Shown: positions 3,489 to 47,141, counted from the first letter of the stretch. The stretch is DNA of 64,000 bases from Candidatus Parcubacteria bacterium (GCA_019661785.1 JAIFWP010000002.1:161869-225868), one strand, 5' to 3'. Notes: generated from the sequence alone by a model not told the origin. Made by a program: numbers and translations.

Positions 3489-3827
3489 ATGAAGATTATC
3501 CTTAGACTCCTCATCTCGGCGGGAGCTATAGCTGTGGCGGTAAAGCTCCTACCCGGCGTGCATGTGAGCGGGGGATGGCAGACTTACCTCATCCTCGCTA
3601 TAGTCCTCGCGGCTATCAACTTCTTCATTAAGCCTGTTCTTTTGCTTCTGACTCTACCGCTTAGCATACTCACGCTCGGGCTCTTCACGGTTGTGCTCAA
3701 TGCTGCGCTTGTCTTCCTTGCGACAAAGATTGTCCCAGGCTTTACCGTGGACTCCTTCCTCTACGCAGTCTACTTCGGTGTCGTACTAGCAATAGTAAAC
3801 GGCGTACTAAAGCGCCTCGACGACTAG
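3489..3827 (+). CDS. YvlD / phage-holin-4_2 (PF04020-like) four-TM membrane protein
   Basis: LLPGVHVSG.W...LPLSILTLGLFTVVLNA...VPGFTVD matches the family consensus. Confidence 0.7.
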   Translation: MKIILRLLISAGAIAVAVKLLPGVHVSGGWQTYLILAIVLAAINFFIKPVLLLLTLPLSILTLGLFTVVLNAALVFLATKIVPGFTVDSFLYAVYFGVVLAIVNGVLKRLDD

Positions 3828-4127
3828 CTACCAGACCTTATATATCTCGCGGCCACCGGAGACGTACATGTCGTTCATGTCCTTCCACTTGTCCTGCTCC
3901 TCTTTGCTCACCTCAGAGTAATCCTTCTCCATCTCCTTACGCATAGCCTCTTCGAACTCGGCGAGGTTATTGTAGTTATGAATCATGATGACGCGGTGCC
4001 ATTGGCCTGTCATGTCGGTGAGTATGTAAGGACCCTTTACTGGGTCGAAGGGCATGGTCTTCATGAGCTTGGCTATCTTCGAGGCATTGCCGGGCTTACA
4101 GACGAATGTGTTGTGTACTTGGATCAT
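3828..4127 (-). CDS. Hypothetical protein (99 aa), possibly a small alpha/beta-barrel protein
   Basis: Clean ORF overlapping the next gene by 4 nt, which suggests an operon. No confident family. Confidence 0.5.
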   Translation of the reverse strand: MIQVHNTFVCKPGNASKIAKLMKTMPFDPVKGPYILTDMTGQWHRVIMIHNYNNLAEFEEAMRKEMEKDYSEVSKEEQDKWKDMNDMYVSGGREIYKVW

Positions 4128-4384
4128 CCCGTTAGAGTTAGGAAGCGCTTAATTCTATTGTTAATAAATCGTTTACCCATGCCAGATTTTAAATATTTTT
4201 CTCTGGCCCTAGCGTCATCTTCATTATGACACGCTTCGCAGTATATAACGTAAAAAGGACCACGACCTTTCGTATATGTTGACTTACCATTGTTGTGCTG
4301 CCATAAGCGCTTCCGTAAACTATTCGTGATGCCTGTGTACCACTTACCGTCTTTCTTGCTCTTTAGTACGTAGTTGTACCACAT
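4124..4384 (-). CDS. GIY-YIG nuclease family protein (UPF0213-like)
   Basis: YNYVLKSKKDGKWYTGITNSLRKRLWQHNNGK...KYLKSG matches the GIY-YIG core. Confidence 0.8.
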   Translation of the reverse strand: MWYNYVLKSKKDGKWYTGITNSLRKRLWQHNNGKSTYTKGRGPFYVIYCEACHNEDDARAREKYLKSGMGKRFINNRIKRFLTLTG

Positions 4385-4442
4385 AACAGAGTGAACTCTA
4401 ACGGGATCATAAATTGTTATTAAGAATTATTTTAGGTATGCG

Positions 4443-5028: not shown

Positions 5029-5120
5029 GGAGACGTGTCAGAGTGGTCTATCGTACCTCTTTGCTAAAGAGGTGTGCCCTTTAAAAGGCACCGACGGTTC
5101 GAATCCGTCCGTCTCCGCCA
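5029..5120 (+). tRNA. tRNA-Ser(GCU), class II with a long variable arm; CCA encoded
   Basis: Acceptor GGAGACG/CGTCTCC, anticodon arm CCTCT-TTGCTAA-AGAGG, variable hairpin GTGCC...GGCAC and T-arm GACGG-TTCGAAT-CCGTC. Confidence 0.85.
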
Positions 5121-5204
5121 AGTAGCCGTTCTTAGTGTTGAGTTGTTATCAACAGCTTTCAGTTTTTTGTCAAATAGTCGTTTTTTTCATGATAGTCTGA
5201 ATGT

Positions 5205-7046
5205 ATGCAATGGAACGAGCGACTTACGGAAAATATTATAAATGGCTGGCTTAATAAGGTAGGAATCACAGAAAAAGATGGTTTTTCTGTTGAGCAACAA
5301 CTTAGTTCTAATCCGAGGATAGAAAAACTTCTTAAAAATGCTAGTAAGTCTGGAAACGGTGTTGGAAAACCTGAGTTCATAATAACTAAAAATACTGAAC
5401 AGAATTTTATTTTAATAATTGAATGTAAGGCTGATCCAAAATTTCATGAGTCCAAAAATCACGATAAATACAAAGACTACGCAGTTGATGGAGTTCTGCT
5501 ATACGCTTCTTATCTCGCCAAAGAATTTAATGTCATTGCCGTAGCTGTAAGTGGACAAAAAGAAGCAGAAATTAAAATAGACACTTTTCTACATCCTCGA
5601 GGATCTCTTAGGGCAGCTCCCCTAAAAGAAGGTGCTAGAGGGACAGCAATAAGAGAGATTATATCCTGGACTGATTATATACGTCATGCCACTTATGATG
5701 AAAATCTGACTCGAGTACGTCGTGAAGATTTAGCCAGATTTTCCCGTGATCTTCATAACTACATGCGTGACTATGCAAAAATAACTGAAGCTGATAAGCC
5801 CTTGCTTGTCAGTGGTATTCTTATCGCACTAATGGATGATGGATTTAAAGTTTCCTATTCTAAGTATGAGGAAGGATCATTGGCGAAGAGAACATATGAG
5901 ACAGTTAGAGATATTATTAACTCCGCCCAACTCGGAATAAATCAGGAAGAAAAAAAAGATGCAATCATAAATTCTTTTAGCTTTATTAAGCATCATCCTG
6001 AATTAAAAAAGATAGATCCTGAAACTAAAGAATCGCCGTTGGCACATATAATTAAAGAGATTGATCTTGAGGTCAGACCTTTTACTGAGGATCATTATGA
6101 TTTTGATGTGATTGGAAGCTTCTATGCTGAATTTGTTCGTTATACTGGCGGAGACAAAAAAGGTCTTGGTATTGTACTAACACCCAAACATCTAACAGAT
6201 TTGTTTGCAGATCTTGCTGGAGTTAATAAGAACTCAACTATTTTAGATACGTGTGCTGGCACGGGGGGGTTTCTAATATCAGCCATGCAAAAGATGACCA
6301 AAAATGTCAGTGATCTTGAAAGAAAGAGAATTTTGAGTGATTCTCTTATCGGTATTGAACAAGAACCAAAAATGTTTGCCTTGGCGGTTTCTAACATGAT
6401 CCTGAGAGGAGACGGAAAGACTAATCTTTATCAAGGATCATGTTTTGACGAGGATATTATTGGTCCCCTACGTGGTAAGGCAACGGTTGGATTTATTAAT
6501 CCCCCTTATTCTCAAAAAGGAAAAGCACTTCATGAATGGAATTTTATTGAAACTTTGTTGGATTCCTTGCAAGAAAATGCTACAGGAATTGTTGTGGTGC
6601 CGATGTCTTTATCAATTGCTCCTCATCCGACTCGACAAAAAATTTTGATTAATCATAGGCTGGAAGCTGTAATGAGTATGCCGGATGATTTATTTTATCC
6701 AGTAGGTGTCGTGTCGTGTATTATGGTTTTCACGGCGCACAAACCGCACGATAGTGAGCCAAGGCACGAGAGTTGGTTTGGTTATTGGAAAGACGATGGT
6801 TTTATAAAGGATCGCTTACAAGGCAGAATTCCCACGTCTAGATGGCCACTGATACGCGAAAAATGGCTTAACACTTTTTCTAAAAGAGAAGTGATCCCAG
6901 GTTTTAGCGTACGCAAAAAAGTAGATGGAAATGATGAATGGTGCGCAGAAGCTTATCTAGAAACAGACTACTCTTCAATAAAAGAAGAGGATTTTGAAGA
7001 TTTAATTAAGAGATACATTTTATTTAAAACCCTTAGTAATAGGTAA
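5205..7046 (+). CDS. Type IIB (BcgI-like) restriction-modification enzyme: N-terminal PD-(D/E)xK endonuclease fused to a gamma-class N6-adenine DNA methyltransferase
   Basis: N-terminus GKPEFIIT...ILIIECKAD (PE...ECK nuclease motif). The C-terminal half has AdoMet motif I (LDTCAGTGGFL) and motif IV (NPPY). 613 aa is close to BcgIA. AT-rich codon usage. Confidence 0.75.
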   Translation: MQWNERLTENIINGWLNKVGITEKDGFSVEQQLSSNPRIEKLLKNASKSGNGVGKPEFIITKNTEQNFILIIECKADPKFHESKNHDKYKDYAVDGVLLYASYLAKEFNVIAVAVSGQKEAEIKIDTFLHPRGSLRAAPLKEGARGTAIREIISWTDYIRHATYDENLTRVRREDLARFSRDLHNYMRDYAKITEADKPLLVSGILIALMDDGFKVSYSKYEEGSLAKRTYETVRDIINSAQLGINQEEKKDAIINSFSFIKHHPELKKIDPETKESPLAHIIKEIDLEVRPFTEDHYDFDVIGSFYAEFVRYTGGDKKGLGIVLTPKHLTDLFADLAGVNKNSTILDTCAGTGGFLISAMQKMTKNVSDLERKRILSDSLIGIEQEPKMFALAVSNMILRGDGKTNLYQGSCFDEDIIGPLRGKATVGFINPPYSQKGKALHEWNFIETLLDSLQENATGIVVVPMSLSIAPHPTRQKILINHRLEAVMSMPDDLFYPVGVVSCIMVFTAHKPHDSEPRHESWFGYWKDDGFIKDRLQGRIPTSRWPLIREKWLNTFSKREVIPGFSVRKKVDGNDEWCAEAYLETDYSSIKEEDFEDLIKRYILFKTLSNR

Positions 7047-7047
7047 T

Positions 7048-8007
7048 ATGGAATTAACACCTCTAAACACAATTTTTGACATTGAGTATGGAAATAAATT
7101 CGATCTGAATAAAATGATTATTAAAGATAAAAGCAAGATAGCTTTTGTGGGGCGTACAGAAAAAAATAATGGTGTTACGGCGTATGTTGAAGAGGTGTCT
7201 GGGATAAGTCCATATGATCCAGGTTTCATAACTGTCGCTCTCGGCGGTGCAATTCTTGAGTCTAATCTCCAGCCATTCCCTTTTTATACGGCGCAGAATG
7301 TTGCAGTTTTAAAACCTAAAAATACAATGAGTGACGAAGAGAAACTTTTCTATGCTTTTGCTATTGAAGCTAACAAATTCAGATATGGCGCCTTTGGTAG
7401 AGAGGCTAATCGTTCCTTGAGAACGCTTCTTGTTCCGAAGTCTATTCCCAAGATGTTTATGAAGAAGAGTAATTTTGAACCATCTAATGAATCTATATTA
7501 TTCCCAAGGGAGGTGACATTTCCACCTACTTTATGGAAATCATTCAAGTACAAAGATATATTTGATATCCAAACTGGTATTGGTCCATTAGTAAAATCAA
7601 GAACAATCGAGAATGGAGCAGTCCCTTTTGTGTCTACAACATCTGAGAGTAATGGTTTCTCTTACTATTATGCTGGTCCTGCAAAACATGCCGCAAATCT
7701 CATAACCGTGAGTAATGATGGATCTGTAGGAGAAGCTTTCTATCAAGATAAACCATTTTCTGCCAGCTATAAGGTTAATATTTTAGCTCCAAAATTTGAA
7801 CTTAATTTGTATAGGGCATTATTTTTGAACGCGATCATTAGAAAAGAAAAATATCGTTATTCATACGGACGCAAGTGGGGACTAGATAGAATGAAGGAAT
7901 CAATAATGAAATTGCCAGCATGTCCAAATGGGAGTCCTGATTGGAAATATATGGAAGATTATATAAAGTCTCTGCCGTATACCAAGACTTTGCTCAGCTA
8001 CGTTTAA
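7048..8007 (+). CDS. Restriction-modification specificity (S) subunit with two TRD-like halves (BcgIB-like)
   Basis: Starts 2 nt after the RM gene. Internal duplication (FDIEYGNKF... / FDIQTGIGP...) and HsdS-like conserved linkers (LLVPKSIP..., IMKLPA). Confidence 0.65.
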   Translation: MELTPLNTIFDIEYGNKFDLNKMIIKDKSKIAFVGRTEKNNGVTAYVEEVSGISPYDPGFITVALGGAILESNLQPFPFYTAQNVAVLKPKNTMSDEEKLFYAFAIEANKFRYGAFGREANRSLRTLLVPKSIPKMFMKKSNFEPSNESILFPREVTFPPTLWKSFKYKDIFDIQTGIGPLVKSRTIENGAVPFVSTTSESNGFSYYYAGPAKHAANLITVSNDGSVGEAFYQDKPFSASYKVNILAPKFELNLYRALFLNAIIRKEKYRYSYGRKWGLDRMKESIMKLPACPNGSPDWKYMEDYIKSLPYTKTLLSYV

Positions 8008-8109
8008 ATTAAAGATTTTAATCTGTAATATTAAATTAAGTACATCAAATTTTATAAATTTCGAACGCCTTGAAAGATTAAAGGTTTTGTTGTAGTTTTG
8101 GTTGAATAA

Positions 8110-8976
8110 ATGACCTCACAACTTTTTCCAGAAGCAGCTCTCCCACAGTATCTTTTGGATATTTATTTCCAAGGGCCATCTTTTAACGGAATGATGGAGA
8201 TTGATTCCCTCGCCAAAGAGGTTCAAGGCTTAGAGACTGTGTTGAGAATTGCGTTGCATTCCCTGATAAAAAATAAAAGGCTTAATCTGAAAAGTGGGGA
8301 CTTGGAAATTTATGTTGAGGCATTTGAGAAGGGATCATTTCGAAAAAGAATAAAAGTTTTTAATAGGACAACAAAAGAATATGTGCCTCTAGTTAGTTTG
8401 GCAACATTAGTTGTCTTGATATTCCAAACGATCCCTCAATATAAAACAGAGGAGATAAAAACTTTGTCTCCAGAGCTAATTGCTTCAGTGAGAGATCAGG
8501 TAGTGTTAGAACTATTGCAGGATAAGAAGTTTTTGGGTGCAGCGGCTGATATTGTACAGCCTATATCGCTTGGAGGTGATATGTGCACTTTGTCTTCAGC
8601 CGTTGACAATAAAGCCGTGATTGATTCCGAAACTAGTAAGAAGTTTATTAATTTAACTGATTCTGCTGAGAGTTCAGTTGATGATGGGGAATATTATGAA
8701 GTATTGCAGGGAAGAATAAACAGGGTGGATCTGGATGCTTCAAGAAGGCATATAGGATTTAAGGTCAATAGTGAGGGAGCGACAATTGATGCAACATTTC
8801 AAAATAAGCCATCTCCCGAAGAAATGAAGTCTTTGCTTGGTGAGTGGGTGGAAATCAAAGGTAATGTTTCGTATATAGGCGGCCAAAGAAGTCATGTGGA
8901 TATCTCTGAATTTAATGTAATCAAACAGAGGCAATTTGATATGCATTCTGATCAATCAGATAATCCCAAAAAATAA
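8110..8976 (+). CDS. Hypothetical protein (288 aa) in the AT-rich island
   Basis: Long clean ORF with AT-rich composition like the RM genes. No recognizable motifs. Confidence 0.55.
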   Translation: MTSQLFPEAALPQYLLDIYFQGPSFNGMMEIDSLAKEVQGLETVLRIALHSLIKNKRLNLKSGDLEIYVEAFEKGSFRKRIKVFNRTTKEYVPLVSLATLVVLIFQTIPQYKTEEIKTLSPELIASVRDQVVLELLQDKKFLGAAADIVQPISLGGDMCTLSSAVDNKAVIDSETSKKFINLTDSAESSVDDGEYYEVLQGRINRVDLDASRRHIGFKVNSEGATIDATFQNKPSPEEMKSLLGEWVEIKGNVSYIGGQRSHVDISEFNVIKQRQFDMHSDQSDNPKK

Positions 8977-9007
8977 ATTAATATTACCGAGGTACACTTA
9001 AGCCCTA

Positions 9008-9388
9008 ATGTTTTTGAAATTCAGGCTTAGGCGGGGGAGAAAGACTATACGGCGGAGGCCGGCGGGGAAGTATTTGAAGTATAAGGAGGAGGCGAGGGCG
9101 CTGGTGCGGGCGAGGCTCGAGTACTTTAATGCCGAGTATGGCTTCAAGTGGAATCGTATTGCCATTAAGGACCACAAGTCGCGATGGGGTAGCTGCTCCA
9201 AGAAGGGGAATCTGAACTTTAACTACCGCATAGCCCTCATAGCGCCTCACCTTGCCGACTATATAGTAGTGCACGAGCTCTGCCACTTGGGAGAGCTTAA
9301 CCATTTAGTCGAGCGCTCTATGCCAGACTGGCGTAAGAGGCGAGACGAACTGATGAAGATAGGAGCCAACACTGCAAGTTTGATTTGA
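9008..9388 (+). CDS. DUF45/YgjP-family zinc metallohydrolase, C-terminal half only (likely 5'-truncated)
   Basis: SRWGSCSKKGNLNFNYRIALIAPHLADYIVVHELCHLGELNH (HExxH) matches the DUF45 C-terminus. About 100 N-terminal residues of the family are absent. The gene sits 31 nt after the island's last gene. Confidence 0.5.
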   Translation: MFLKFRLRRGRKTIRRRPAGKYLKYKEEARALVRARLEYFNAEYGFKWNRIAIKDHKSRWGSCSKKGNLNFNYRIALIAPHLADYIVVHELCHLGELNHLVERSMPDWRKRRDELMKIGANTASLI

Positions 9389-42948: not shown

Positions 42949-43045
42949 GTTAGTGAAATTAAAATCTAATTGCTGTTAATCTCGACCCTGCACGGAAAGA
43001 CGACGAGCTATAATCGACCTTACATTTTCTTATGGTGTAATTAAC

Positions 43046-43651
43046 TTACAGAGATTTTATATCTGAAACTAATTCTGGGAATTCTTTTTGATTGAAATGT
43101 CCTTTGTCTTTGAAAGTTCTCACAACTGCGTTTGGTATGGCTTTTGCATATTTAGCAATGTCTTTGAACGGCACCTGTTTGTCATCCTTGCTGTGATATA
43201 GGAATATCTTCCCGCCTTGTTCTTCCAGCAGCTTCAAACTTGGCGGGAGATTGAAATCAACTAGCTCATAATCCGCATCCTCTTCATCAAACGGTGCGGC
43301 AATTAGGAAAGTGCCATGTATGCGCTTGGCGAGCTTGTTCTCCGATAGATACTTGGCCAAGAATATACCGCCAAGTGAGTGTCCAACCAAGATAATCTCT
43401 TGGTCTAGAAGCGGCAGAAGCTTTTCGAACCAGATCCTCCACTCTTCATATCTGGCATTGAACTTGTTCGGCATCTCTGGACGGATGACCTTGTACTCGT
43501 CACCAAGGCTAGATTCTAAAGAGTCTTTCCAACCCTGCTTCATAAAGTACTCTAAGCTGTCTACGACAAACTCTTTGAGCGAAGCTATGTATGCCTCGTA
43601 GGTGCCATAGTTGTCTCCTCCGTGTATGACTACGACCTGCTTCTTCATCAC
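43046..43651 (-). CDS. Alpha/beta-hydrolase (serine hydrolase, YdeN/RBBP9-like)
   Basis: GHSLGG nucleophile elbow; AT-rich. Confidence 0.7.
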   Translation of the reverse strand: MMKKQVVVIHGGDNYGTYEAYIASLKEFVVDSLEYFMKQGWKDSLESSLGDEYKVIRPEMPNKFNARYEEWRIWFEKLLPLLDQEIILVGHSLGGIFLAKYLSENKLAKRIHGTFLIAAPFDEEDADYELVDFNLPPSLKLLEEQGGKIFLYHSKDDKQVPFKDIAKYAKAIPNAVVRTFKDKGHFNQKEFPELVSDIKSL

Positions 43652-43905
43652 CTCAGATAAAGGTATAAACCGGAGGCTATTATGATTTGAATGATAATCG
43701 CGACAAAAAGCTTTGAGGAGCTCTTAATGGAAGGGCCGTATAGATACGCCGCTAACGATATGGCATATAGGACTATTGCGAATCCTAAAACGATGAGCAA
43801 ATTTGGCCCTTCGGGGTCGTTAAAGAGCGCGAGCATTACTCTAGAGCATACGATAGCTGTTATGCCTAGGATTAGTAATGAAGTCTTATTTGAATGCAGA
43901 TGCAT
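43648..43905 (-). CDS. Small membrane protein (85 aa)
   Basis: Three hydrophobic helices; overlaps the neighbor by 4 nt. Confidence 0.4.
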   Translation of the reverse strand: MHLHSNKTSLLILGITAIVCSRVMLALFNDPEGPNLLIVLGFAIVLYAISLAAYLYGPSIKSSSKLFVAIIIQIIIASGLYLYLR

Positions 43906-43906
43906 G

Positions 43907-44083
43907 CTAGCTAGCTTTATGGAACTTCTTGCCTATGTAGTATGGCCAGATGATGATGGCGAGCACTCCTCTCCAGAAGGTGAGTCGAAGATATCCGATA
44001 GTGAATAGCCATCCAATAGTCCACAGTGGCCCTAAGCCGTTTCCAGTAACAATAACATTATGAAATTTATCTATGTTTTGCAT
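43907..44083 (-). CDS. Small membrane protein (58 aa)
   Basis: Below the 60-aa cutoff and so absent from the track. Its stop lies 2 nt before the next start, which points to an operon. Confidence 0.3.
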   Translation of the reverse strand: MQNIDKFHNVIVTGNGLGPLWTIGWLFTIGYLRLTFWRGVLAIIIWPYYIGKKFHKAS

Positions 44084-44254
44084 GTGTAGATTATAGCACT
44101 GACAATGAGAGGTTAAACAGTGATAAGTAGGAACAGAACGAGGAGAAGAATGCCTGGAACCATTTATCTGTGCACAAAATTATTGCGTAATATTGCTCTG
44201 ATAAATGATAGAATGTTGTCATAAGTACCATTATTAAATTAACTACCAACATAT

Positions 44255-46636
44255 TTGTATTGGACAAAAGACAATATAAAAACTTTGGCCAATATATTTA
44301 TGAATAAAGTAAAATCGGCAGCATCGGCGCTTGTCATTATCAGCATGTTCATGGGAAGTGCTCTCCCCGCATTTGCCCAGCTCGGCGGTGTCACCTCTCC
44401 GCCTGTTGAAGCGCCCTCTGCTCCCGTACCCGAGCCTGCACCAGCACCTGTAGTAGAACCGTCAGCGCCACCTGCTCCCGAAGTCGAAGGTGTGGAACCA
44501 GAAGTGCAGACAACTGTTGAAACAGGCACTCAAACAGTTACGGAAACTGTCACGCAAATAGTTGCCGCAGATACTACCGCGCCGGTCATTTCCGGAGTTG
44601 CCGATCTTTCGCTTGGCTTGAGCGAAGCCACGATCGTCTGGACTACGGACGAACTCGCTACTTCTCGTCTTGAGTACGGAACAACGGAGAGTTACGGATC
44701 ACAAGCCACTCTCGATGATACAGCCCTCTTGGCGCACACCGCGATCATTCTTGGCCTTGCACCGAATACGACATACTACTACTGTATTCATGCGACAGAC
44801 CTTTCTCACAACACCAGGAATTCATGCGGGCATTCTTTCAGGACATCGGCAGCTCAAATCATTGAAGACACCACACCGCCGGATGTGACACTCATAACGG
44901 TTGCGCCAATCACGACGACTGGAGCAACGATCAATTTCACCACGGACCAAATTGGCAATACCCGAGTTGAATACGGCACGACGGCTGGCTATGGAGAAAC
45001 GACAGCTCTCAATACAACTTTCGCAATCAATCACAGCGTCACCCTTTCCAACCTTACATCAAACACTCTCTATCACTACCGCATAATCACGAGTGACGAA
45101 ATCGGCAATGAGACCATCACCTCAGACGAGACATTTACCACTGATAGCTTGGTGGACGTTAATGCCGGCGCCACCGTTCCTGAATCGTTAAATGCTGGTG
45201 CAGGAGATACAGGAATCAGCGCATCGGTAGTTATTTCCGCTGTCGATGCGGTTTCTCTGTCTACTGGAAGCGCCACGATCACCTGGCACACCAATCTTCC
45301 TTCGGATTCTCAGATCGAATATGGCGACAGTGAGAATTTCGGATCATTAAGCATTTTAAGTACTGCTCTTACCACTTCTCATTCAGTCACCTTGAACGGC
45401 TTGGCTCAAAACACCAACTACATCTTCCGAGTCAAATCAAAACCGCTTGGAGCATCGGTTGCTACTGTGTCTCAAAACTATGAGTTCGATACGCTCAATC
45501 ATTCCATCCCAGTCGTGGCACCAGCAAACATCATTTCGGTTTCTTCGGGATCGGTAACAAATACTGGAGCGACTATAAATTGGACGACAGACAAGGGAGC
45601 AACATCGCAAGTGGAGTACGGCACTGATACCGCCTACGAATTTTCGAGTACGAATACCGAAACTCTTCTCACTTCTCACTCAGTTGCTTTGAGTAGTCTC
45701 AATTCAGGCACAGCGTATCACTATCGAGTGAAATCTGTTGATGAAGCGGGAAACATTACTTTTTCCGAGGACTATACCTTCATCACTACAGGCACCTCTT
45801 CCAATGTTTCAACACCTCCTGCACCAATCATTACGAGTGAAGGAGAAACTCCGATTGTTGATGTAGCAGGCGTTGACGGACAGGTGGTTTTTGAGATTAA
45901 TGAGGGCAATCCGGCTATCAATGAAGATGTTGTCATCGAACGAGACGAGGTTGTCATCTACGAAGGCAACAGCGAGACATTCACTGACACCAACCAGACA
46001 AATGGAGTGACTCATAATTACACTGTCTTTGCCCGTAGCTCTGGTGGAGGTTCATCAAGACCGGTTAACATCTCCATTGCTCCGGTTGCAGGAGTGCGAC
46101 AGGTGAAATTTAATGAAAGCGGCACGCTCTCCTCATCCACTCCAGCCTTCCATTTCGTCAAACAATGGCAGAAGGGCGACACGGATATCGAGATAGAGCA
46201 TTTGCAGGAGATACTCGTAGCGGACAAGGACTCATACCCTGAAAAATATGTTACTGGATATTTCGGTCCGCTCACCGAAGCCGCTCTCAAGCGTTTCCAG
46301 GCAAAGCATGGTCTCCCTCAAACAGGTGCGGTTAATGCTGCGACCCAAGAAAAACTCAATACGGTTTCCCATTCAGAAACTAAGCTCGATATCTCACATG
46401 ATTACGTCGTCTTTGCCACCGACCTAAAGCGTGGCGATCAGGGAGAATCCGTTAAAGATATCCAGCAGTACCTCATCTACGAGGGCAGTTATCAGGAAGC
46501 GATAATCTCAGGTTACTTTGGCAACTTCACTCATAATGCGGTGAAAATATTCCAAACAAAATACAATATTAATCCGGTATCGGGAATCGTTGGCCCAAAG
46601 ACTCGTCACAAGATGCAGCAGTTGGTGGGGTTATAG
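44255..46636 (+). CDS. Large secreted surface protein: four Fn3/PAP-N-like repeats plus two C-terminal peptidoglycan-binding (PG_binding_1) domains; the true start is probably the ATG at 44300
   Basis: Signal peptide MNKVKSAASALVIISMFMGSALPAFA. Repeated ...ATINWTTD..ATS.VEYGTT..YG...SHSV.L..L..NT.Y.YR. Two GYFGP/N...LK.FQ..H/Y motifs. Confidence 0.75.
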   Translation: MYWTKDNIKTLANIFMNKVKSAASALVIISMFMGSALPAFAQLGGVTSPPVEAPSAPVPEPAPAPVVEPSAPPAPEVEGVEPEVQTTVETGTQTVTETVTQIVAADTTAPVISGVADLSLGLSEATIVWTTDELATSRLEYGTTESYGSQATLDDTALLAHTAIILGLAPNTTYYYCIHATDLSHNTRNSCGHSFRTSAAQIIEDTTPPDVTLITVAPITTTGATINFTTDQIGNTRVEYGTTAGYGETTALNTTFAINHSVTLSNLTSNTLYHYRIITSDEIGNETITSDETFTTDSLVDVNAGATVPESLNAGAGDTGISASVVISAVDAVSLSTGSATITWHTNLPSDSQIEYGDSENFGSLSILSTALTTSHSVTLNGLAQNTNYIFRVKSKPLGASVATVSQNYEFDTLNHSIPVVAPANIISVSSGSVTNTGATINWTTDKGATSQVEYGTDTAYEFSSTNTETLLTSHSVALSSLNSGTAYHYRVKSVDEAGNITFSEDYTFITTGTSSNVSTPPAPIITSEGETPIVDVAGVDGQVVFEINEGNPAINEDVVIERDEVVIYEGNSETFTDTNQTNGVTHNYTVFARSSGGGSSRPVNISIAPVAGVRQVKFNESGTLSSSTPAFHFVKQWQKGDTDIEIEHLQEILVADKDSYPEKYVTGYFGPLTEAALKRFQAKHGLPQTGAVNAATQEKLNTVSHSETKLDISHDYVVFATDLKRGDQGESVKDIQQYLIYEGSYQEAIISGYFGNFTHNAVKIFQTKYNINPVSGIVGPKTRHKMQQLVGL

Positions 46637-46665
46637 TCAAACCCTCCGTTTCGAAGAGGGTTCGG

Positions 46666-47001
46666 TCACAAATTATTGTTAATGAGATTCAGTTTCTTTT
46701 CACGTCGCCAGCCCTTCAATTCCAACTCTCTTTGCTTCGCTTCTTTCAGAGTTTGGAATATCTCTTTGTATCTTAACTCAACTGGTCTGCGGATCTTCGT
46801 ATAATATGCTCCCCACTTGGAGTCATTGTGTTGATGTAACCTCCTTTCAAGATTATTTGTACACCCTACATATAAGGACTTATCTGCGCATTCGAGAATA
46901 TAGACGAAGAATGACACATTCAAATAATACCACTTCGCTCTACTGAGCTCAGTGCCTTCGTCGACCTTGTGAAATACGGTCGAAGACCCTGAGGAGCACA
47001 A
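46666..47001 (-). CDS. GIY-YIG nuclease family protein
   Basis: FFVYILECADKSLYVGCTNNLERRLHQHN...; the start is uncertain. Confidence 0.7.
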   Translation of the reverse strand: MCSSGSSTVFHKVDEGTELSRAKWYYLNVSFFVYILECADKSLYVGCTNNLERRLHQHNDSKWGAYYTKIRRPVELRYKEIFQTLKEAKQRELELKGWRREKKLNLINNNL

Positions 47002-47012
47002 GCGACGAAGGG

Positions 47013-47083
47013 CTGCCGATCAGGGACTCGAACCCCAATTAACCGCTCCAGAGGCGGTCGTCCTACCATTAGACGAATCGGCA
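47013..47083 (-). tRNA. tRNA-Gln(CUG)
   Basis: Reverse-strand U1-A72 acceptor TGCCGAT/ATCGGCA, anticodon arm ACCGC-CTCTGGA-GCGGT, T-loop TTCGAGT. Confidence 0.7.
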
Positions 47084-47141
47084 ATACAGGCCAAGAATAG
47101 CTCAAAAGCGAGCTATTTTCAATCTTGATATACTTACTGCT

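Follow-up and report, generated by a model that had tools for sequence, protein, structure and literature searches.

A conserved two-domain protein carried with restriction-modification genes of many types in Patescibacteria

The 64,000-nucleotide (nt) stretch of Candidatus Parcubacteria bacterium DNA considered here (GCA_019661785.1 JAIFWP010000002.1:161869-225868; below, the window) contains a restriction-modification (RM) locus followed by an uninterrupted open reading frame (ORF) of 288 amino acids (aa). The gene and its product are here called X (Table 1). An earlier reading, made from the sequence alone (below, the sequence-only reading), had described it as a long, clean, AT-rich ORF just downstream of the specificity (S) subunit gene of a BcgI-like RM pair. 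This description proved exact in position and length; X has a GC content of 0.379, with 0.332 at third codon positions (GC3), and starts 102 nt past the S gene. The upstream pair is indeed of the BcgI-like Type IIG, that is, a fusion of restriction endonuclease (REase) and methyltransferase (MTase) accompanied by a separate S subunit with two target-recognition domains. In addition to the PADLOC models listed in Table 1, the A subunit matches Pfam N6_Mtase (E-value (E) 2.5e-24), and the S subunit matches Pfam Methylase_S in two stretches (E 1.4e-25).

The genes of the A subunit, the S subunit and X form a single compositional island of 3.9 kb (about 5121-9000). Its GC content is 36-39% vs about 53% across the remaining window, and the GC3 values of the three genes are 0.275, 0.303 and 0.332, respectively, vs 0.63-0.70 in the flanking genes. 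The edges of the island are sharp: the GC content falls directly after the tRNA-Ser(GCT) gene and rises again at about 9000. X and the BcgI-like Type IIG system were acquired horizontally as one low-GC block next to tRNA-Ser. There is no integrase inside the island. A tRNA-derived attachment site (att) repeat was searched for at the right edge and none was found; the 3' end of the tRNA-Ser gene is repeated nowhere else in the window. No RNA elements were found by searches of the spacer and the island. An inverted repeat with 15 of 17 matching positions (8022-8038 / 8974-8990) was considered as the boundary of a cassette and rejected, as about 17 such repeats are expected by chance, by our own estimate, in AT-rich DNA of this length.

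The YgjP-like ORF at the right edge (126 aa, HELCH motif present) begins 31 nt past the X stop codon, at the return of the GC content to the host level, and matches only positions 108-205 of the 207-position Pfam profile. It may be a naturally short form, or it may have lost its N-terminal half on insertion of the island; an N-terminal YgjP-like fragment was not found to the left of the island.

X belongs to a rare, conserved family with a single architecture, and the gene is under selection. An identical protein is the hypothetical protein KW800_01655 from a Candidatus Parcubacteria bacterium metagenome-assembled genome. Together with it, 32 full-length homologs were found, the other 31 coming from metagenomes at 38-69% identity. 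An exhaustive profile search of 1.84 billion cluster representatives (50% clustering) yielded 89 relatives, 58 of them at E <=1e-10, and only four members were added by a second search for homologs, based on a word index and the broad alignment. Nearly all of the 89 relatives are 265-310 aa long and align end to end; shorter relatives with the C-terminal half only, considered as another architecture, turned out to be truncated gene calls. The alignment contains the invariant or near-invariant motifs GPSFxGxMEI, AFEKGSFRKR and GRINRVDLDAxxRHIGFKV. Because of these 32 homologs, 89 representatives and invariant motifs, X is far beyond a chance ORF and must be under selection. A spurious ORF is ruled out by the same full-length homologs, and the gene cannot be called an orphan, as it had been in the sequence-only reading.

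The family is nearly confined to Patescibacteria (the Candidate Phyla Radiation, CPR), with at least one distant member in a genome with a fuller metabolism. Among 185,579 species-representative genomes there are six matches, all of them in Patescibacteria (Paceibacterota, Terrybacteria, Magasanikiibacteriota, Peribacteria). One might suppose an ordinary CPR housekeeping RNA- or DNA-binding protein that lies near RM genes by coincidence. The predicted OB fold described below would suit such a role, two homologs were named 'predicted RNA-binding protein' by the Joint Genome Institute, and neighbours of a housekeeping kind occur in some contexts (L011, L037). However, homology of X to housekeeping families was looked for and none was found; the composition of X is foreign in this genome, the distribution is patchy and rare, and the enrichment of RM genes around the family is strong. 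A housekeeping role is extremely unlikely.

Twenty-four non-redundant genomic contexts of family members were compiled. Neighbouring genes were annotated from precomputed Pfam tables, by a batch Pfam scan of 47 neighbours, by a targeted scan, and by cross-matching to annotated proteins. X lies in or beside RM genes in 18 of the 24 independent contexts, on the same strand and usually downstream (Table 1). Complete gene tables were available for 13 loci; in these, RM genes occupy 17 of the 50 positions at most two genes away from X vs 4 of the 131 positions farther away (odds ratio 16, one-sided Fisher p 8e-8, with the background drawn only from the flanks of the same loci). The association persists in members about 25% identical to X. 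Embedding of the X family in RM operons is strong, lies far above chance, and extends across RM types.

Two narrower associations were considered and rejected. The first is an accessory specific to BcgI-like systems. No other X locus has a BcgI-like pair of A and S subunits, and proteins 64-69% identical to X, its closest relatives, accompany Type I operons, whereas X itself accompanies the BcgI-like pair; the association is thus with RM systems at large rather than with BcgI-like enzymes. The second is that X works in a two-gene system, together with a conserved partner encoded downstream. The ORFs that follow X (106, 211, 327, 216, 188 and 252 aa, DUF3644, PD-(D/E)XK) are unrelated, have no mutual matches and share no common family, and in the window and L008 there is no downstream partner at all.

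Table 1. Features of the window and arrangement of family members with their neighbours (order of genes as read along the locus; X stands for the family member)
Feature or locus	Position	Strand	Type	Details
GIY-YIG ORF	4124..4384	-		86 aa; intermediate composition, GC 0.40, GC3 0.44
tRNA-Ser(GCT)	5029..5120	+		ARAGORN; Rfam tRNA 45 bits; left edge of low-GC island
REase-MTase A subunit	5205..7046	+	Type IIG (BcgI-like)	613 aa; PADLOC REase_MTase_IIG E 2.8e-113, full length
S subunit	7048..8007	+	Type IIG	319 aa; PADLOC Specificity_II E 7e-54
AT-rich spacer between S and X	8008..8109	+		102 nt, 21.6% GC
X	8110..8976	+		ATG start, 288 aa; conserved RM-linked accessory protein
N-terminal alpha/beta domain of X	8110..8679	+		residues 1-190 (predicted); beta-alpha-beta-beta-alpha, helical insert, beta-beta-alpha
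Motif GPSFxGxMEI	8173-8202	+		N-terminal domain
Motif AFEKGSFRKR	8320-8349	+		N-terminal domain
Hydrophobic helix of X	8383..8439	+		residues 92-110, VPLVSLATLVVLIFQTIPQ; Kyte-Doolittle mean 1.75-1.86
C-terminal OB fold of X	8686..8919	+		residues 193-270 (predicted)
Motif GRINRVDLDAxxRHIGFKV	8710-8766	+		OB fold
YgjP-like metallopeptidase ORF	9008..9388	+		Pfam YgjP-like E 2.9e-29; GC3 0.669; right edge of island
L046			Type I	hsdM-X-hsdS-hsdR; overlaps of 4 nt upstream and 17 nt downstream
L012-15			Type I	hsdR-NYN-hsdM-X-DUF3644-hsdS; 23 contigs
L016			Type I	hsdM-X-orf-hsdS
L026			Type I	hsdM-X...hsdS
L036			Type I	hsdR-X-hsdS...hsdM
Window, L038, L041, L044			Type IIG	L041: PD-(D/E)XK gene in between
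L004			Type II	MTase-EcoO109I-X...Mrr
L033			Type II	DpnII/MboI REase-X
L021/23/29			Type II	N6_N4 MTase array
L028			Type II	X-PD-(D/E)XK...C5-MTase-HATPase_c_3
L039 = L040			Type III-like	N6_N4 MTase-orf-X-ResIII helicase; same locus, 99.9% identical over 1557 nt
L008			Type ISP	ISP enzyme-Pif1 helicase-X; island with serine recombinase
L001, L006, L022				large methyltransferases nearby
L017			other defence-type neighbour	HEPN_Toprim_N
L024			other defence-type neighbour	AbiEii/OLD-like AAA_21/AAA_15 ATPase
L010, L011, L034, L037				nothing RM- or defence-related seen, or too short

The sequence-only reading credited X with an AT-rich upstream region of its own. The composition of the spacer agrees with this; as for the rest, a scan for sigma-70-type promoters gave no promoter-like site in 8008-8109, the scan overall being at chance level, and no terminator was found after the S gene. 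In 11 other loci, X starts at most 6 nt from the stop codon of the upstream gene or overlaps it, and the spacer in the window is atypical in comparison with these tightly spaced loci. Translational coupling of X to the RM gene before it is seen in most homologs. The reading that we favour is that the X genes are carried within or at the 3' end of RM operons of any type and are co-expressed with them.

X might serve the RM enzymes themselves, as an auxiliary component or a regulator. It could be a non-catalytic OB-fold subunit that binds single-stranded DNA or the DNA ends left by restriction and thereby interferes with repair or favours degradation. Alternatively, it might slow or moderate restriction, so that an RM cassette newly arrived in a host does not kill it. 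In L046 and L012 the gene is located between hsdM and hsdS with stop/start overlaps on both sides, an arrangement that would be expected of a stoichiometric partner. It is always on the same strand as the RM genes and mostly downstream of them, nucleases and helicases are often adjacent (PD-(D/E)XK, Pif1, NYN, ResIII), and the predicted fold resembles those of RPA, PriB and SSB and has no catalytic motif. On the other hand, the type of the partner varies freely (Type I, IIG, II, III-like, ISP), even at 64-69% identity, and this argues against a specific protein-protein fit. Moreover, four to six contexts have no nearby RM gene (L010, L011, L034, L037, L017, L024), and the vast majority of RM systems have no X, given the 89 representatives in 1.84 billion proteins. 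We consider an auxiliary or regulatory role unlikely. An autonomous single-gene module is favoured over a dedicated RM subunit, since the family is indifferent to RM type and has no fixed partner.

The AlphaFold model of X (predicted local distance difference test score, pLDDT, 83.6; predicted template modelling score, pTM, 0.81) consists of two domains. For the fold of the protein, no significant relative among solved structures was found by sequence profile. The C-terminal part is modelled as a five-stranded closed beta-barrel with a helix between strands 3 and 4 and can be superposed on known OB domains. The top structural matches of this domain are RPA32, RPA14, Stn1, Ten1 and PriB, the Foldseek matches to OB domains only being at E 2.5e-4 or weaker, and the conserved residues G216-F217-K218 are located on OB strand 2. 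In the model, the fold assignment holds: X is predicted to have an alpha/beta domain of a novel kind at its N-terminus and, at its C-terminus, an OB fold of the type that binds nucleic acids. However, it is only 8-14% identical to the known nucleic-acid-binding OB folds (RPA32/RPA14, PriB, SSB, the anticodon-binding domains of class IIb aminoacyl-tRNA synthetases) and belongs to none of their sequence families; unlike them, the domain of X is acidic and is fused to the novel N-terminal domain. The residues conserved throughout the superfamily are nearly all glycine, phenylalanine, proline and aliphatic ones; the few polar residues among them are S24, S76, D157, D207, D209 and K218.

A hydrophobic helix (residues 92-110) lies within the N-terminal domain. 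Hydrophobicity is retained at this position throughout the superfamily (median Kyte-Doolittle value 1.75), although the sequence is not. If this helix spans the membrane, X could be a membrane-anchored envelope protein that blocks, for example, the entry of phage DNA (superinfection exclusion) and rides in defence islands as a defence gene; the N-terminal part would then be inside, and the helical region and the OB fold outside. The retained position of the 19-residue segment agrees with such an anchor, as does the charge of its flanks, which is more positive on the N-terminal side (net +1.7 vs +0.1 on the C-terminal side, p 4e-4). Membrane-anchored or periplasmic OB proteins (CcmE-like, YgiW) occur among the structural matches. 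In the distant member P0072, residues 93-112 score 22.9 bits (E 5e-5) against the NCBIfam model for the Fst type I membrane toxin, whose cutoff is 26 bits; this match may reflect composition alone. However, in the AlphaFold model the helix is buried in a compact N-terminal domain to which the strands before and after it both contribute, and pLDDT around it is above 90. The insertion energy of the segment, as a position-independent Hessa sum, is unfavourable (median +4.4 kcal/mol), a charged residue falls within the segment in half of the members, there is no signal peptide, and operonic coupling to cytoplasmic DNA enzymes points away from the envelope. Thus an envelope anchor is quite improbable. 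The helix would be either membrane-inserting or a buried core helix, and we lean towards the latter.

For X, every Pfam, NCBIfam, PADLOC and PHROG model stays below its threshold, in agreement with the sequence-only reading, in which no motifs had been recognised. Below the thresholds, several similarities were observed. PADLOC models match both genes of the RM pair, and X is below the threshold of PDC-S42 (PDLC05015/05016; E 1.7e-4, 19.2 bits). In this alignment, X residues 16-96, about 80 residues with the N-terminal motifs, fall on positions 6-81 of the 302-position model; a quarter of the model is covered, and PADLOC would not call X. PDC-S42 is matched by 11 of 57 diverse family members (best E 2e-17), which indicates a link at the level of the superfamily only. 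The PDC models represent 145 'phage defence candidates' predicted from genes embedded in Type I RM, BREX and DISARM operons, the archetype of an embedded system being PrrC (Payne et al. 2024, bioRxiv 10.1101/2024.01.29.577857). PDC-S42 is mentioned neither in the text or supplements of that study nor elsewhere in the literature searched. Embedding of this kind is seen in five independent Type I loci of the X family (L012, L016, L026, L036, L046), whereas the system ahead of the copy in the window is a Type IIG pair rather than Type I. Both X and PDC-S42 are single genes of about 300 aa embedded in RM-type operons, and both are candidates for defence by context only. Unlike PDC-S42, X falls in a CPR-centred clade and is tied to all RM types rather than to Type I, BREX and DISARM only. 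By profile similarity, the X family is a divergent, CPR-centred branch of the superfamily behind this existing computational candidate.

The situation would be analogous to that of PrrC, an anticodon nuclease embedded in a Type I RM locus and composed of an ABC-ATPase-like N-domain and an anticodon-nuclease C-domain. In EcoprrI, PrrC is a single accessory gene embedded in, and co-expressed with, the Type I RM operon, and the same logic is proposed for X. However, neither PrrC domain was found in X with Pfam, NCBIfam and PADLOC, X has no catalytic motif, the fold is different, and PrrC is tied to Type I systems, whereas X occurs with Types I, II, IIG, III-like and ISP.

The best NCBIfam match of X is NF053583, LAPAL_fam ('LAPAL motif-containing putative phage structural protein'; E 1.7e-6, 27.7 bits vs the cutoff of 60). 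The two are of similar length (the profile has 292 positions) and align over X residues 18-209, and the model is matched by 21 of the 57 family members (best E 3e-22). LAPAL_fam is probably a sister family within the X superfamily. Pfam DUF7946 (PF25678) matches X at residues 27-82, in the region of both N-terminal signature motifs (E 0.0036, 17.8 bits vs the gathering threshold of 27), and is matched by four of the 57 members (best E 5e-5). It has no described function, and no paper on DUF7946, nor on the LAPAL motif, was found in the literature searched. There is also a weak match to phrog_3243 (E 0.002). Finally, Foldseek against viral models gave three full-length matches to uncharacterised phage proteins (E 7e-11 to 5e-9). 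One of these is a viral DUF6575 protein (E 5.5e-9, probability 1.0, 282 aligned columns), a full-length Foldseek match stronger than those to OB domains only; however, its template modelling (TM) score is 0.37 and the root-mean-square deviation is 13 A. Vassallo et al. (2022, PMC9519451) give DUF6575 among the domains of their 21 E. coli systems with experimental validation, the text of the paper not naming the system that has it. At the sequence level, neither X nor any of the 57 family members matches Pfam DUF6575 or a PADLOC PD-* model. The possible kinship of X and DUF6575, suggested by predicted structures, is only a lead.

The matches to LAPAL_fam, to phrog_3243 and to the three phage proteins could also mean that X is a passenger from a phage or mobile element, that is, a structural, anti-defence or anti-restriction gene trapped in RM islands by recombination. 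Horizontal acquisition of the island and the presence of recombinases or insertion sequence (IS) elements in some loci are consistent with this. However, the LAPAL_fam score is far from the cutoff, and a LAPAL-like motif, [LIVM]AP[AG][LIVM], occurs in none of the 122 collected family proteins. A tblastn search with three family members gave no match in 50,697 phage genomes or 72,556 plasmids, no copy of the family was found in IMG/VR, and none of the 24 contexts has phage structural-module neighbours. Translational coupling within intact RM operons would also be ill-suited to a trapped gene. Nothing supports the label 'phage structural protein' for the X family, which, unlike LAPAL_fam, has neither the motif nor a phage context, and a passenger origin is very unlikely.

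Several neighbours of the family deserve mention in their own right. In the Type I locus of the closest X homolog (L012-L015, e.g. L012:7774-9968), an IS element with a DDE_Tnp_1 transposase splits hsdS, leaving a fragment of 111 aa and a gene of 287 aa; this arrangement recurs on 23 contigs from several samples. The compact, mobile-looking island L008:127-8852 encodes a serine recombinase, a helix-turn-helix protein, a 1622-aa Type ISP enzyme, a Pif1-family helicase and X; the last three are separated by 1-3 nt, and the pairing of the Type ISP enzyme with the helicase is itself of possible interest. Near the homolog in L017 (7650-10286) there is an FtsH homolog with an intein that contains a LAGLIDADG homing endonuclease (Pfam Intein_splicing and LAGLIDADG_3 inside the AAA protease). 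The L001 homolog has nearby a 23S_rRNA_IVP/bAvd-like gene and a DUF87/TraG-like ATPase (L001:608-961 and L001:1-569). DUF87 ATPases are found again in the vicinity of X in L006 and L044, a hint that such contexts may be conjugative or otherwise mobile.

In the window itself, a 17-nt inverted repeat with 94% complementarity (ATCATCCCGTTAGAGTT / AACTCTAACGGGATCAT, 4123-4410) exactly brackets the GIY-YIG ORF, and together they may be a small mobile nuclease cassette. In L010 and L024, too, a small GIY-YIG gene (E 1e-19 to the window copy) adjoins the X homolog, but such a tight repeat is absent there. Just upstream of the GIY-YIG gene is a 112-aa ORF (3489-3827) that matches Phage_holin_4_2 (E 1e-26). 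A second low-GC stretch (43000-47100; 0.43-0.47 vs about 0.53) ends by a tRNA-Gln(CTG) gene (47010-47084, minus strand) and may be another acquired island.

Taken together, the contexts of the family lead us to infer an accessory function of X that is linked to RM and most probably serves defence. The sequence-only reading had proposed accessory defence, abortive infection or anti-restriction. This proposal is supported by the association with RM genes and by the resemblance of part of the family to PDC-S42; the association is with RM systems in general. We tentatively favour, as nearly an even chance, the reading that X is an RM-linked, second-line anti-phage module, non-enzymatic and independent of the RM type. 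Such a module would rely on RM operons to be expressed and to spread, in the manner of PrrC in Type I loci. The OB fold, if correctly modelled, might recognise single-stranded nucleic acid or a similar ligand derived from infection. The N-terminal domain might then act without catalysis, by oligomerising, and the hydrophobic helix could possibly insert into the membrane, so that the infected cell or the phage would be stopped.

A number of observations weigh against this reading. Firstly, the RM enrichment was measured against the flanks of the same loci, and CPR genomes are rich in RM genes. The translational coupling to hsdM and hsdS is equally compatible with an RM subunit or regulator. Secondly, X is an acidic protein (isoelectric point 5.3, and 5.0 for the OB domain), which is unusual for a general nucleic-acid binder, and the best structural matches of the OB domain also serve in protein-protein assembly. 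The alignment contains no conserved nuclease, NTPase, other catalytic or toxin-like motif, hence there is no obvious effector. Thirdly, the evidence for a membrane helix is split. Finally, the match of X to PDC-S42 is below the threshold, and PDC-S42 itself is only a computational prediction.

A more novel reading is that X is an RM guard of a new kind, serving any RM type. It would be a non-enzymatic sensor made of an alpha/beta domain not seen before and an OB fold, and it would be co-translated with its partner RM system. What it detects would be either that restriction has failed (for example, through anti-restriction proteins of the phage) or what restriction has produced (DNA that is single-stranded or broken); it would then shut the cell down, possibly via the hydrophobic helix. 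We regard this reading as unlikely. If true, it would provide a general back-up layer for RM immunity in the CRISPR-poor CPR, with distant relatives (PDC-S42) in other phyla.

The two-domain architecture is fixed, the N-terminal domain has no solved relative, and there is no catalytic motif. If X does protect, its mechanism is unlikely to be among the familiar nuclease or NADase routes. This would also be the first structural and contextual description for the superfamily behind PDC-S42. Hundreds of comparable embedded candidates have been catalogued, most of them predictions, and X is one good candidate among many; it stands out by its unusually clean and broad coupling to RM genes and by its partly new fold. 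Most CPR bacteria have no CRISPR systems and are thought to rely heavily on RM systems. In such bacteria, a conserved gene found with RM operons of every type could show how RM immunity is backed up or tuned.
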